DNA from: an uncultured Candidatus Peribacteria bacterium
GTDB lineage: Bacteria > Patescibacteriota > Gracilibacteria > UBA1369 > UBA12463
Direction of reading: 5' to 3'
Length of the DNA: 64,000 bases
Assembly: GCA_964356305.1 (NCBI GenBank)
Contig: CAYHGS010000001.1
Coordinates: 16,130 to 80,129, forward strand
Positions 24,321-53,493 of this stretch are shown in pieces; positions within the stretch are counted from its first letter, which is position 1, and every line of letters begins with the position of its first letter. The notes under the pieces were generated by a model. That model saw nothing but the letters and a program-made list of their open reading frames with translations, was not told the origin of the DNA and searched no databases. A program made the translations under genes and the position numbers.

Positions 24321-24827
24321 TTATACAACCCGGAGGAGTGGCCTAACTCTTGCTCTAAAATCCTCAATTGCCCGTTCGAGCGACAAAGGGTCTATATTTG
24401 GACATGCCCTCAGTATATCAGCCCGAAAAATCGTAATTGACTCATCGATTACAAGACCGCTCGGTACCTTGGCTCCTCTCTCTGAGTACGATTGACATTT
24501 TGAGACAAAATCCAGAAACAGAGCTAGATCTTGAGCTTCTAGCCCAAGCGCATTTCCCAACTTCGTATATCGAGGATCGTACGTTGCATGCCCATGGCCG
24601 TCCCTCACTGTTCGATATTTTCCATTGCGCATATCCATCACGAAATTTCTATGAAGTTTTGCGCTATCAGAAAATCGCACGGTATTTCCACTAAATTTCT
24701 CATTTATCACCGTGACAACGAGCCCTGCGATGGACGTGCTCGGCGTGGCAACTCCACAGGCAATGTCGAGTCGTCTGAGAATATCCGTGTGCTGGACTTC
24801 GCTTTGGCCTCGTAATTCTGGGCTCAT
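24321..24827 (-). CDS. hypothetical protein
   Basis: 168-aa ORF with no recognisable motif. Its stop codon lies 7 nt from the tRNA-Leu 3' end. Confidence 0.5.
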   Translation of the reverse strand: MSPELRGQSEVQHTDILRRLDIACGVATPSTSIAGLVVTVINEKFSGNTVRFSDSAKLHRNFVMDMRNGKYRTVRDGHGHATYDPRYTKLGNALGLEAQDLALFLDFVSKCQSYSERGAKVPSGLVIDESITIFRADILRACPNIDPLSLERAIEDFRARVRPLLRVV

Positions 24828-50511: not shown

Positions 50512-50666
50512 AGAAGTATTGTTCTGCTATATTTTATCAAATTTGCGAGTAATTTTTTTCGTTATTTTTGGCGTATATAAGCCATTTCAGAAATTTGTTA
50601 TCTCAATGTCAGAGGTTTGTTAGAAGTGCTTGCTATGCTTGTCTTGTCAGATTTGGTATGGCAAGT

Positions 50667-50737
50667 GGGGACGTTCATGGTGAAATTCCGCAATTGCCAT
50701 TTCGGATAGGCGGGTTCGATTCCCGTCGTCTCCACCA
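50667..50737 (+). ncRNA. tmRNA-like tRNA-like domain RNA (alanine-type acceptor, T arm, CCA; no anticodon arm, no tag ORF)
   Basis: GGGGACG pairs with CGTCTCC (G3:U70), followed by A73 and CCA. T arm GCGGG-TTCGATT-CCCGT. The interior is a 14-nt GG-containing linker plus the hairpin CCGCAAT-TGCC-ATTTCGG. A strong terminator follows. Confidence 0.6.
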
Positions 50738-50751
50738 GTCTGACAACGAAC

Positions 50752-50785
50752 AAAAAGAGCAGTCCAGGTTGGACTGCTCTTTTTG
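50752..50785 (+). terminator. strong intrinsic terminator after the tRNA-like RNA
   Basis: AGAGCAGTCCA (50756-66), loop GGT, TGGACTGCTCT (50770-80): a perfect 11-bp stem flanked by AAAA and TTTT. Confidence 0.75.
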
Positions 50786-50934
50786 GGAATCCGAAATTGC
50801 CATTTCGAAAGATATTGTAGCAGAAATTTAACTTTACCTCAAGGTCTCAACGTCTTTTTGCCAAATTCCAGCTTTAAATAATTATAAATTTTACATATTC
50901 GTTCTCGCAAATTTTTATGCTAGCATGGTGGCCT

Positions 50935-52512
50935 ATGAGTGAAATCTCCCTTTATCGAAAGTATCGTCCGCAGACCTTTGGCCATTTGGTCGGTCAGGAT
51001 CATGTTCGCATTACCCTGATGAATGCGGTGCGAACGGATAAGCTGGCGCATGCGTATTTGTTTACCGGACCGCGTGGGACGGGGAAAACTTCGACGGCGA
51101 GGTTGTTTGCGAAGGCGATTAATTGTGAAGATATCAGCGAGGCCGGAGAACCATGCGAGAAGTGTGATATTTGTATCGACATTACTTCAGGAAGATTGAT
51201 TGATGTTATTGAAATTGATGCCGCGTCCCATACGGGCGTTGATGATGTGCGCGAGCTGATTGATAAATTGCACTTTGCGCCGACGCGTGCACGGAATAAG
51301 GTCTATATCGTAGATGAAGTCCATATGCTCTCTAAGGGCGCTTTTAATGCGTTCCTGAAGACTTTGGAGGAGCCACCGGCGAATGTATATTTTATTTTGG
51401 CGACAACGGAGGCGCACAAAGTTCCGGAGACAATTATTTCTCGATGTCAGCGATTTGATTTTAAGAGGATTGACGTAAAGACAGTGATGGCACGATTGGC
51501 TTATATCGCCCAGAGTGAAAATATTGTCGCCGAAGAAGAAGCTCTCGAGATGATTGCACACCATGTAGATGGCGGTTTACGCGATGCTATTGGTTTATTT
51601 GAACAACTTATTGTTGATGGAAAATTAGCAGCTGCGCATGTACGAACGATTCTCGGCGTGGCGGGAAGTAGTGCTGTTGAAAAGTTTTATAGCTTATTAA
51701 TGAGTAAAGATTCTGTTGAGACGCTGCGGTTTATTCAGGAATTATATGGAGAAGGTGTCGATTTTGGACAGTTTACGAAAGAGCTATTAGAAAAAATGAG
51801 ATTGGAAATGCTGAGGGCTATTGATACGAAAAAGGTTGATGAGGCGAAAGAGTGCGTACGTATGATTGAGTGCTTCCAGAAGGCATTTGATCAGTTGAGA
51901 AATTCGTTGATTGTGCAGTTACCACTCGAGATGGCGGTGGTGAGATTTTTACATGGAGAGATTGCTGTGGCTCCGGTTGTGATGGCTGTTGCGCCTGTGA
52001 TTCAAGCAGTTGCACCTCCTCAATATACCATGCCTAGTATTTCCACTCCTACTGTTGAACAAAAAATTAGTTCATATAAGATGCCAACTGCAGCGCCCGT
52101 TTCTACTGATGCAGCTCCTGAAAAAGTGATGTCGGGAAAAACTATTACCCAGGATGAGCTTACAAAAAACTGGCCACGGGTTATCGAGAGAATCAAGACG
52201 CCAAAACTACGGATTTCATTGAAAGATGTAAAACATTTCAACGTGGAAGGATATGTCATTACTCTATCGTTTTCTGCCAAATTTCATCAGGACACGGTGA
52301 TGGATAGTGCTATTCGCAGCGAGTTAGAGAAATTGATCGAAGAGGTTTTTGGCACGTCGGTTCGAGTTGAATCACGTATCGAACGAATCGAACTTCATAC
52401 GTCTATCGAGCGCCACGAAGAAACCGTAAGTCGCAGTCAGGCTGTCAGTAGCGATACTACCGATTTTGCCGATGACGTTGCGGCGATGTTTGGAGGAGAG
52501 GTGGTGGAATAA
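50935..52512 (+). CDS. dnaX: DNA polymerase III subunit gamma/tau
   Basis: LYRKYRPQTF, Walker A GPRGTGKTS, the zinc module CEKCDIC, and the DEVHML box. TGCTAGCAT lies 8 nt upstream of ATG 50935. Confidence 0.9.
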   Translation: MSEISLYRKYRPQTFGHLVGQDHVRITLMNAVRTDKLAHAYLFTGPRGTGKTSTARLFAKAINCEDISEAGEPCEKCDICIDITSGRLIDVIEIDAASHTGVDDVRELIDKLHFAPTRARNKVYIVDEVHMLSKGAFNAFLKTLEEPPANVYFILATTEAHKVPETIISRCQRFDFKRIDVKTVMARLAYIAQSENIVAEEEALEMIAHHVDGGLRDAIGLFEQLIVDGKLAAAHVRTILGVAGSSAVEKFYSLLMSKDSVETLRFIQELYGEGVDFGQFTKELLEKMRLEMLRAIDTKKVDEAKECVRMIECFQKAFDQLRNSLIVQLPLEMAVVRFLHGEIAVAPVVMAVAPVIQAVAPPQYTMPSISTPTVEQKISSYKMPTAAPVSTDAAPEKVMSGKTITQDELTKNWPRVIERIKTPKLRISLKDVKHFNVEGYVITLSFSAKFHQDTVMDSAIRSELEKLIEEVFGTSVRVESRIERIELHTSIERHEETVSRSQAVSSDTTDFADDVAAMFGGEVVE

Positions 52513-52605: not shown

Positions 52606-53493
52606 CTATGTTTTTTTTCTATATTTCATAACCATCCGATCGATGGGAAATTTTTTACTGACTGTGTCGGCATGTTCGCGAATTTTCCAATATTCCGTCC
52701 TGTCATCTTCGTGATCAATCAGACTCATGTGCGCAAGGCGTTCATGGGTGGTACAAAGTGCCACAATAAGATCCGGATCGTGTAATGCTTCTAGGGCAAA
52801 TCTTTGCGTATGATGAAGTATATGATATTTTTTATTGCATCGCGGGAATTCACATCGACCTTTTGATCGTTGAATAACGTGTCTTTGAATCTCCATAGGA
52901 ATATGCCTGGAAGTCGCCTCGACCGCCTGTGGTTTTTGTAATTCTATGAGCTGCTTTCTTGCATCGAGAAGCTCTTTCATAAGCGCACTCCAATCTCCGC
53001 CTGAGTTGAGCTTTTCCAGTTCGTCGGCAATCTCTGGATTGAGTTCCATGGGAATCAGCTTTGTTAGCTTCGTACTAGTACGAAGCTGCTCAGCTTCAAT
53101 GCGCTGCGTGCGAATTTCATGCACATATACTTCGAGTGCCCTTTTACCCATGGTCGCCGCTTTTTCTGCCCAGAATTCTGCCGTCTCGGATGTGGCGATT
53201 GTCGCAACAGGACGAACAGCGTTCACTCCATATTCTTCCACAACCTTCATCAGTTCGGGCTTATCCTCAACGGCATGAATAATTCTCAGTGCATCATCGA
53301 CGCACGAGTGACTGATACCCGCAAGCCTTGATGCATATTCATGAATACTTCCAAACCCTTTCTGTTCCCAGACGCGCTCCTTCTCGATTTCCGGCAACAT
53401 AAGAATACATTTTCGCTTCCAGTGAAGGGCGTTACTACCGTAGTATCGAAATTTTTGATGCAGTTCATTGGCAATTCTTGCTTTTTGTAGCAT
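52606..53493 (-). CDS. HNH endonuclease-domain protein (paralog of 29418..30320)
   Basis: CEFPRCNKKYHILHHTQRFALEALHDPDLIVALCTTHERLAH. It aligns with the other copy along its whole length (WEQKGFGSIHEYASRLAG..., NAVRPVATIATSE...). Confidence 0.75.
   Translation of the reverse strand: MLQKARIANELHQKFRYYGSNALHWKRKCILMLPEIEKERVWEQKGFGSIHEYASRLAGISHSCVDDALRIIHAVEDKPELMKVVEEYGVNAVRPVATIATSETAEFWAEKAATMGKRALEVYVHEIRTQRIEAEQLRTSTKLTKLIPMELNPEIADELEKLNSGGDWSALMKELLDARKQLIELQKPQAVEATSRHIPMEIQRHVIQRSKGRCEFPRCNKKYHILHHTQRFALEALHDPDLIVALCTTHERLAHMSLIDHEDDRTEYWKIREHADTVSKKFPIDRMVMKYRKKT

Follow-up and report, generated by a model that had tools for sequence, protein, structure and literature searches.

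Organization of the Locus

The DNA analyzed here, referred to as the window, is a stretch of 64,000 nucleotides (nt) from an uncultured Candidatus Peribacteria bacterium (assembly GCA_964356305.1, contig CAYHGS010000001.1, positions 16,130 to 80,129 of the forward strand). By its DnaX, the contig belongs to Candidatus Peregrinibacteria, a group of the Patescibacteria or candidate phyla radiation. Between the gene for a GT4 glycosyltransferase and dnaX (50917-52512), the window holds an alanine-identity transfer RNA (tRNA)-like RNA of 71 nt, which we designate RNA1 (50667-50737, plus strand), and beside it, on the minus strand, a repeat of the RNA1 hairpin sequence that forms part of a predicted antisense small RNA of ~60 nt, RNA2 (50747-50807, both ends predicted). 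An intrinsic terminator common to the two genes, a perfect 16-base-pair (bp) hairpin at 50751-50785, is bidirectional and serves both strands. A preliminary description of RNA1, made from the sequence by itself, had presented it as the ends of a transfer-messenger RNA (tmRNA) without a middle and did not include RNA2, the gene that is the most informative feature of the locus. From comparison with related loci, we consider it highly probable that the module has the anatomy set out below, i.e., two genes, a compact tRNA-like fold for RNA1, and specific pairing between the two RNAs.

The full sequence of RNA1, GGGGACGTTCATGGTGAAATTCCGCAATTGCCATTTCGGATAGGCGGGTTCGATTCCCGTCGTCTCCACCA, begins with GGGGACG and ends with CGTCTCC-A-CCA. 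Its acceptor stem (5′ strand 50667-50673, 3′ strand 50727-50733) has 7 bp, including G3:U70, and is followed by A73 and an encoded CCA (50734-50737); the T arm (50710-50726) is canonical (GCGGG/UUCGAUU/CCCGU). In all of these elements the sequence agrees with the preliminary description. The remaining parts, a mini D hairpin (50674-50684) and a long stem-loop (50686-50708), emerged from covariation within the family described below. As the three ordinary tRNA genes of the window also encode their CCA, RNA1 matches the tRNA gene style of its host.

A putative extended -10 promoter for RNA1, TGtTAGAAG, was assigned purely by motif at 50618-50626, and a -10 element of the form TGnTAnnnT stands at the matching place in L011, L018, L043, L037, L012, L027, L023, L031, and L035 (loci compared with the window are given by number). 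A strand of the 5′ leader, TGTCAGA (50645-50651), pairs with its complement in the 3′ trailer, TCTGACA (50739-50745), in a duplex of -11.5 kcal/mol (shuffle fraction 0.013), and a helix of this kind, locus-specific in sequence, flanks RNA1 at a shuffle fraction of ≤0.02 in 12 of the 15 loci that share the convergent gene arrangement of the window. The strands of the terminator hairpin are 100% complementary, with a run of A on one side and a run of T on the other; it was scored as a terminator on the minus strand, and a hairpin occupies the equivalent site in all convergent-type loci. A terminator following the CCA had been recognized beforehand, correctly as to its presence, but as an 11-bp hairpin.

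Standard annotation tools pass over RNA1. ARAGORN recovered only the three ordinary tRNAs in the window, with no tRNA or tmRNA call at RNA1, and no Rfam family, the tRNA model included, reached its gathering score at the locus. In a permissive scan with the tmRNA model RF00023 both model ends aligned exactly to 50667-50737; the score was 36.7 bits, short of the gathering score of 47 bits, and the alignment passed over 326 model positions opposite 25 nt of sequence. As only the ends are aligned, the sequence as such is fairly described as "tmRNA ends without a middle." Full-length tmRNAs of ~350 nt served as positive controls and were found with these tools at two unrelated loci (L014 and L019) at ~211 bits, with tags of the ANENYALAA type and smpB adjoining. 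The preliminary description was borne out in regarding RNA1 as an alanine-type tRNA-like RNA; RNA1 has a predicted promoter and terminator of its own and is accepted as a decoder by no tRNA finder (ARAGORN being silent and Rfam sub-threshold). It had also raised the collapse of a full-length ssrA during assembly; the module is identical base for base in the window and in loci of two separate assemblies (L001 and L002), so no such collapse took place.

The RNA1 Family and Its Fold

Relatives of RNA1 were retrieved with a pattern (GGGG, GG in the D region, the T loop, and UCCACCA, within a span of 56-86 nt) from one genome per species, which yielded 32 loci, more than half of them from Peregrinibacteria, Peribacteria, Gracilibacteria, and other Patescibacteria. 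The family members are RNAs of 70-77 nt. A covariance model (R1) was seeded with seven gapless 72-nt members and then used to align 29 sequences, 28 of them distinct; RNA1 scores 53.7 bits on this model (E 1e-11) and is the sole member within the window. The proportion of cells that form standard pairs is 93.3% in the alignment, compared with 63% after shuffling and 52-59% in the slid controls, and the covariation score is 0.743, vs. 0.17 and about 0.1, respectively. Compensatory changes, i.e., changes on both sides of the pair, are found at 19 of 24 pairs, including every pair of the D hairpin and of the long stem.

The mini D hairpin directly follows position 7 and consists of 4 bp, all covarying, which in the window read UUCA-UGG-UGAA, with UGG as the loop. 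The long stem has 8 bp, each of which covaries, and carries a loop of 8-9 nt with the motif YUYGNCA (in the window, AUUGCCAU) that the covariance model places onto the anticodon loop of genuine tRNA-Ala. All four helices of a cloverleaf are supported by covariation, with a minimal D arm and connectors that are nearly absent. The preliminary description, which saw no D arm and no anticodon arm, is contradicted by the 28 distinct relatives, in which both a D hairpin and an anticodon-like arm covary: its 14-nt single-stranded stretch contains the D hairpin (50674-50684, compensatory changes at 4 of 4 pairs), and what it took for a 7-bp hairpin capped by a UGCC tetraloop makes up the lower part of the long stem. 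The family covariation replaces that picture with a compact four-arm cloverleaf. The cloverleaf is visible solely through the comparative model; the minimum-free-energy fold of RNA1 taken singly (RNAfold) has a z of -1.2, which is not significant, and shows no cloverleaf.

On this comparative evidence, RNA1 is one member of a real, conserved family of tRNA-like RNAs with very strong covariation, and the proposal that it is a decayed ssrA does not hold. Both G3:U70 and A73 are present in 28 of 28 sequences, most of them retrieved by the pattern that demands these features; L042:4994-5064 (GGGCCGG...CCGGUCCACCA), found by the model and not by the pattern, keeps G3:U70, A73, and CCA. When positions 70 and 73 were left free, the same three features were kept in all family-like matches listed. 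A metagenome scan with these two positions free was dominated by phage tRNAs and gave at least 2-4 new family members among the matches listed.

Some members lie on contigs binned outside the candidate phyla radiation (CPR), namely L032 (labeled Caulobacterales), L036 (labeled Gammaproteobacteria), and L030, from a metagenome-assembled genome (MAG) labeled Chitinophaga. L032 and L036 have an antisense partner and L030 has none; these cases could reflect either a wider distribution or mis-binned contigs.

Predicted Antisense RNA Genes with Cognate-Specific Pairing

The promoter scan placed the RNA2 promoter at 50842-50814 on the minus strand, with a -35 hexamer TTGAGG (50842-50837), a 17-nt spacer, and an extended-TG -10 hexamer TACAAT (50819-50814), so that TTGAGG-17-TGnTACAAT ends 6 nt before the first base complementary to RNA1. 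The first 18 nt of RNA2 (50807 down to 50790) are CGAAAUGGCAAUUUCGGA and are complementary to nt 21-38 of RNA1; this repeat of the RNA1 hairpin sequence at 50790-50807 has p<0.005 vs. shuffles, and the shared terminator comes next. The length of ~60 nt follows from the predicted start at ~50807 and the terminator hairpin shared with RNA1.

A partner block of this kind is common to much of the family. Locus-specific blocks of 11-19 nt that match the long stem and loop of RNA1 were found within ~100 nt in 21 of 33 genome matches (p≤0.01 vs. shuffles), and L224 is an additional, gapped case. Four layouts were observed: the block is downstream of RNA1 and on the opposite strand, and thus convergent, at 15 loci, the window among them; downstream on the same strand at L036, L038, and L040/L042; upstream on the same strand at L013 and L028; and upstream on the opposite strand at L020a, L020b, L032, and L224. 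In all four, the strand complementary to RNA1 has a sigma-70-type promoter just before the block and a terminator after it. The -10 hexamer lies 5-7 nt ahead of the first complementary base at 17 of 23 loci (exactly 6 nt at 14), vs. about 1.4 expected. No partner block was found beside ten canonical tRNAs, three compact tRNA-Ala genes, or the RNA of phage DS6A that consists of a tmRNA's tRNA-like domain (TLD) only, all of which are considered below.

In the window, the RNA1-RNA2 duplex has an energy of about -29 to -30 kcal/mol, and the two RNAs folded together are ~10 kcal/mol more stable than when folded separately. Across loci, cognate duplexes average -33.1 kcal/mol, vs. -16.2 ± 4.1 kcal/mol for non-cognate ones, and the cognate ranks first as partner in all 15 rows and all 15 columns of the comparison, paralogs within a single MAG included. 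Orthologous modules (the window vs. L011, and L016 vs. L039) differ from one another at matching positions in RNA1 and RNA2. The predicted pairing is in this way shown to co-evolve cognate-specifically.

The RNA2 seed has one further match only in the 64-kb window, with 3 mismatches and at chance level. A match to the hairpin motif with 3 mismatches lies at 24362-24379, 48 nt downstream of tRNA-Leu, and is probably due to chance, as about 0.4 such matches are expected and the partner-block test at tRNA-Leu gave p = 0.85.

Two loci bear on the variety of the partner RNAs. At L042:5199-5290 a second RNA2-like gene directly follows the first, with a promoter-like TTATAAT followed by TGTCAAGATGAGG... 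and a terminator; no RNA1 cognate to it occurs in the 8 kb covered, and it may be an orphan partner. The Peribacteria MAG CAYFOO01 has two tandem modules ~500 bp apart (L020:1927-2600), whose partner RNAs contain extra blocks complementary to two other parts of RNA1, its D region and the 5′ half of its T arm. The permuted order of these blocks suggests that these partner RNAs arose as rearranged, inverted copies of RNA1.

Relationship to tRNA-Ala and tmRNA

The scans in which positions 70 and 73 were free were dominated by RNAs of 71-75 nt with a mini D hairpin, G3:U70, A73, CCA, and a canonical CUUGCAA loop, which are located in phage-type tRNA arrays and called as tRNA-Ala(UGC) by ARAGORN. 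The examples that we compared (L022:6779-6851, L026:1909-1982, and L092:901-975) resemble RNA1 in their length, in G3:U70, A73, and the encoded CCA, in an extended anticodon stem, in having the same T loop, and in a mini D hairpin that comes straight after position 7, with 4 bp and a 4-nt loop that contains UGG. They differ from RNA1 in their canonical 7-nt CUUGCAA loop, the tRNA-Ala call by ARAGORN, their location in tRNA arrays, and the lack of an antisense block. On the family model the compact tRNA-Ala(UGC) genes score 47-54 bits, a range that includes the 53.7 bits of RNA1, and the DS6A TLD scores 35.8.

The compact phage tRNA-Ala(UGC) class takes in L044-L135 (from IMG/VR) and many of L136-L255 (e.g., L092:901-975, L078, and L065). 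At least 63 unique 75-nt sequences, together with forms of 71-74 nt, are among the matches listed; their D arm has a stem of 4 bp and a loop of no more than 4 nt (GUAAUGGGUUAC), their anticodon stem is extended, and this tRNA is the sole tRNA-Ala of the arrays checked. L163, L200, L149, L210, L098, and L102, of metagenome or viral origin, form a separate class of compact tRNA-like RNAs of ~72 nt with a CUCAUAA loop (CAU anticodon) and G70, the acceptor stems of which pair poorly in the register used.

RNA1 shares with canonical tmRNA (ssrA, RF00023) its GGGG...CUCCACCA ends, G3:U70, and the T arm. Unlike tmRNA, it has no mRNA-like domain, pseudoknots, or tag, there being only 36 nt between the 5′ strand of the acceptor stem and the T arm; its family is multi-copy in several MAGs; and it scores below the gathering score. 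A closer parallel in size is the TLD-only tmRNA form described from mycobacteriophage DS6A (PMC4131195). This RNA (L256:28478-28560) likewise falls below the RF00023 gathering score, at 43.2 bits compared with 36.7 for RNA1, and, as do the tmRNAs cataloged as "Standard, no CDS" (CDS, coding sequence), it resembles RNA1 in being short, with tmRNA-like ends, the alanine set, and no tag frame, and in being a possible inhibitor of, or participant in, trans-translation. Unlike RNA1, the DS6A RNA has no partner block and retains both the unpaired D-loop analog of tmRNA, the place of which is taken in RNA1 by the covarying 4-bp D hairpin, and the helix-2a signature UCGAC/GGAC, which RNA1 lacks. On the family model its middle leaves the D hairpin and the long stem unmatched. 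From the model scores and the helix-2a comparison, the RNA1 family looks to be derived from a compact tRNA-Ala and not from ssrA; in evolutionary terms RNA1 looks nearer to the compact tRNA-Ala(UGC) of phage tRNA arrays.

The part of RNA1 that departs most clearly from a tRNA is its loop, which has 8-9 nt and a C at the equivalent of position 37, where tRNAs have a purine, unlike a canonical 7-nt anticodon loop. ARAGORN made no call for any partnered family member, and the Rfam tRNA gathering score was reached by L023 only (29.2 bits). Judged by these features, RNA1 is an alanine-type tRNA-like RNA without a working anticodon.

RNAs with tmRNA ends and no tag frame are on record, including in bacteria. 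Nine "Standard, no CDS" tmRNA sequences have been listed, 3 of them counted in Patescibacteria genomes, and the CDS-less or TLD-only tmRNA-like records comprise DS6A, two Mallomonadaceae plastid sequences, Nasuia, and three Patescibacteria entries (PMC11915505). In light of these entries and of the DS6A form (PMC4131195), the statement in the preliminary description that no bacterial case was known needs qualifying, and "first bacterial TLD-only tmRNA" would be a wrong claim for RNA1. In E. coli, the endogenous tmRNA is stated to have been inhibited by the DS6A form (PMC11915505), and a passage of PMC4131195, citing Mao et al. (2009), describes a TLD-only molecule, chargeable or not, as a strong inhibitor of tmRNA, perhaps by titration of SmpB.

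Distribution, Gain, and Loss of the Module

The site between GT4 and dnaX varies among close relatives. L011, with a DnaX 83% identical to that of the window, has its orthologous module in the same synteny; L010, at 93% DnaX identity, has 14 nt between GT4 and dnaX and no RNA; and relatives with DnaX identities of 64-71% have other genes or a 25-nt spacer there. In L009, from a Peregrinibacteria MAG (GCA_026395555.1, JAPLYO010000026.1), the last 16 nt of RNA1 are left and a 1.3-kb insertion follows: L009:2027-3420 reads as an RNA1 remnant ...CCCGTCaTCTCCACCA, ~1.3 kb of foreign DNA with two small open reading frames (ORFs), and then ACCAGTCTGG. The terminator, promoter, and seed of RNA2 are intact in L009 although RNA1 is destroyed. 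From this patchy presence among L011, L010, L009, and more distant relatives we conclude that the module has been gained and lost over short evolutionary times. Several MAGs hold at least two copies of the module. The L009 assembly has two further intact modules (L018 and L043), and the GT4 and dnaX genes of L009 are each split into two ORFs, possibly because of frameshift errors or as pseudogenes.

An all-against-all BLAST of flanking ORFs (at least 80 residues within 4 kb, and 25-120 residues within 1.5 kb) found no conserved protein neighbor beyond the synteny shared by the window and L011 and artefacts of translating the RNA, and within the module there was no conserved ORF of at least 25 residues apart from translation artefacts of the RNA itself. 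A phage origin of the module was considered and rejected: viral contigs held no partnered members, the stricter pattern giving 0 matches there and the relaxed pattern 92 loci, all of them compact tRNA-Ala and other tRNAs, and BLAST against GenBank phages gave matches at the level of the T arm only. No SmpB was found in the 64-kb window or in the CPR loci examined, in a search that had no CPR SmpB query.

Possible Function and Alternative Explanations

RNA1 has kept the half of a tRNA that is seen by RNase P, alanyl-tRNA synthetase (AlaRS), EF-Tu, and the elbow formed by the T loop and D loop, including a GG-containing D loop; what has changed is the decoding loop, on exactly the arm with which RNA2 pairs. 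The explanation that we favor, at a probability of about 50%, is that of a self-contained two-gene module in which RNA1 is a chargeable tRNA mimic and RNA2 its antisense neutralizer, behaving in the manner of a toxin-antitoxin or addiction element. RNA1 would undergo processing of the tRNA type and be alanylated by AlaRS; in its free form it would, like artificial TLD-only RNAs, compete for EF-Tu, SmpB, or the ribosomal A site; RNA2 would neutralize it by opening and masking the former anticodon arm, possibly with cleavage by RNase III; and the module would then act as an RNA-RNA toxin-antitoxin or addiction-type element. In a variant of this scheme, the mimic would jam translation or ribosome rescue, or mistranslate Ser, Thr, or Pro codons as Ala. 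We favor a mimic with an antisense neutralizer because the module is self-contained, multi-copy, orthogonal, and patchy, because L009 keeps RNA2 without RNA1, and because inhibition by TLD-only RNAs has a precedent. The functional part, that free RNA1 disturbs translation or ribosome rescue and that RNA2 is its cognate neutralizer, is offered with low confidence, and so is the still more specific notion of an all-RNA toxin-antitoxin (or defense or addiction) class made up of an alanine-accepting mimic and a labile antisense RNA, with diversification into orthogonal pairs within one genome, which we hold to be possible rather than probable.

Antisense-controlled modules are well known from hok/sok and txpA/ratA (type I toxin-antitoxin), IS10 RNA-IN/RNA-OUT, and plasmid CopA/CopT. 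In common with these, the present module has two adjacent small genes, often convergent and with a shared terminator, an antisense RNA the 5′ end or loop of which pairs with the loop of a target hairpin and then invades the stem, cognate-specific pairs, and a patchy, multi-copy distribution. It differs from these systems in that the target is not an mRNA and there is no conserved ORF, and in that the complementarity is of a trans type, kept outside the overlapping terminator. Of the features of type I toxin-antitoxin systems, the adjacent and specifically complementary antisense RNA gene is present, and a small toxic peptide ORF was not found.

Several points weigh against our preferred explanation. 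Both transcripts, their ends, and the charging of RNA1 are predictions from sequence, and toxicity of RNA1 is purely inferred. No partner could be detected within 400 nt of the RNA1 genes in L030 and L160, a difficulty if RNA1 is a toxin, and the documented loci with an orphan RNA2 amount to L009 plus the one possible case in L042. The conservation of G3:U70 derives largely from sequences obtained with a pattern requiring it, and the YUYGNCA motif of the loop may in part reflect a constraint on the RNA2 start site and not the function of RNA1. In addition, the comparative data are fitted equally well by the reverse polarity, with RNA2 as a regulator of other targets and RNA1 as its stable, tRNA-shaped sponge or decoy. 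The pairing evidence would be the same, a tRNA scaffold confers stability, and E. coli has small RNA sponges that derive from tRNA precursors. We nevertheless regard this as unlikely, since the seeds of RNA2 are locus-specific, that of the window having no other match save the chance-level one with 3 mismatches, and since a pure sponge would have no need of the AlaRS identity set, the CCA, and the T loop.

The TLD-only mini-tmRNA of the preliminary description, i.e., a reduced or second ssrA that is charged with alanine and releases stalled ribosomes with SmpB but without tagging, is in our estimate improbable as well. What stands in its favor is the exact alignment of both ends to RF00023, the G3:U70, A73, and CCA, the CDS-less standard tmRNAs already cataloged, with 3 counted in Patescibacteria genomes, and the sub-threshold score that RNA1 has in common with the DS6A RNA. 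Its support is weakened by a covarying D hairpin and anticodon-like arm, which are features of a tRNA and not of a TLD; by the missing helix-2a signature; by compact tRNA-Ala genes that score like RNA1 on the family model; by a distribution that is multi-copy in MAGs and patchy in close relatives, down to absence at 93% DnaX identity, unlike that of a core rescue gene; by the occurrence of standard tmRNA in about 78% of Patescibacteria genomes (5252 in 6765; PMC11915505); and by the cognate antisense RNA, to which it assigns no role. An unusual decoding tRNA, whether a tRNA-Ala isoacceptor or a regulated mistranslator with its anticodon masked by RNA2, would make an anticodon-covering antisense RNA a logical off-switch. 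The loop does align with the anticodon loop of tRNA-Ala, reading UGC in the window (which keeps UUGC) and UGA, UGU, CGU, or CGA in relatives, with conserved U33-like and G35-like positions, and the compact tRNA-Ala(UGC) genes of the arrays, which share the mini D hairpin, receive a tRNA-Ala call. We judge it distinctly unlikely, however, given the loops of 8-9 nt, C37 in place of a purine, a U33 that is not universal (L018 and L027), the failure of ARAGORN to call any partnered member and of Rfam to accept any but L023, and the canonical tRNA-Ala genes on the same contigs (L029 and L224).

A decayed ssrA pseudogene or a recombination scar at an attachment (att) site, in which the repeats would be left over from integration or deletion at a tmRNA or tRNA gene, is extremely improbable. 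tRNA and tmRNA genes often serve as integration sites, the insertion in L009 lies at the RNA1 3′ end, and the spacer is variable among relatives; yet all four helices covary, the repeat co-evolves with RNA1 in orthologs (window/L011 and L016/L039), and four orientations occur, each with promoter and terminator correctly placed. An origin of the repeat as an att site or target duplication was rejected for like reasons, the repeat covering the 5′ strand and loop of the arm and not the 3′ part of the gene, and lying 50-60 nt from the gene with no integrase nearby. Also rejected was a tag ORF or a split, two-piece tmRNA. If reading starts at the GWC triplet in the repeat downstream, the ORF is AISKDIVAEI* in the window, 2 codons in L023, 16 codons at another locus, and without a stop in L018, and in L012 and L018 another gene ends ~15 nt later. 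No tag ORF consistent between loci follows the repeat.

Neither Rfam 15 nor the searchable literature yielded a family of tRNA-like RNAs that has an antisense RNA gene dedicated to it and co-evolving with it, and the module, on our reading of a tRNA mimic with its antisense neutralizer, could be an all-RNA toxin-antitoxin system of a new class. If expressed as predicted, it would represent a new kind of small-RNA system in bacteria whose non-coding RNAs have hardly been studied by experiment, namely a tRNA-shaped RNA with alanine marks that does not decode and is restrained by an antisense RNA of its own. It would provide a natural test of what follows the release of a chargeable tRNA mimic, be it competition for AlaRS, EF-Tu, SmpB, or the ribosomal A site, and it illustrates how RNA-RNA specificity can diversify into orthogonal pairs, which could become compact regulatory parts. 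For annotation, genes of the RNA1 type are missed by tRNA finders and may be recorded by tmRNA pipelines as "CDS-less tmRNA."

Neighboring Genes

Other genes near the module were noted at several loci. In L003 (7604-8623) and L005 (7636-8652), with DnaX ~70% identical to that of the window, a gene of the AbiEii family (nucleotidyltransferase toxin) is directly downstream of dnaX; the counterpart of this position in the window is an unannotated ORF of 295 residues (52606-53493). In L031, L034, and L039 a canonical tRNA gene (Ser, Gln, and Arg, respectively) lies ~150-250 nt from the module.

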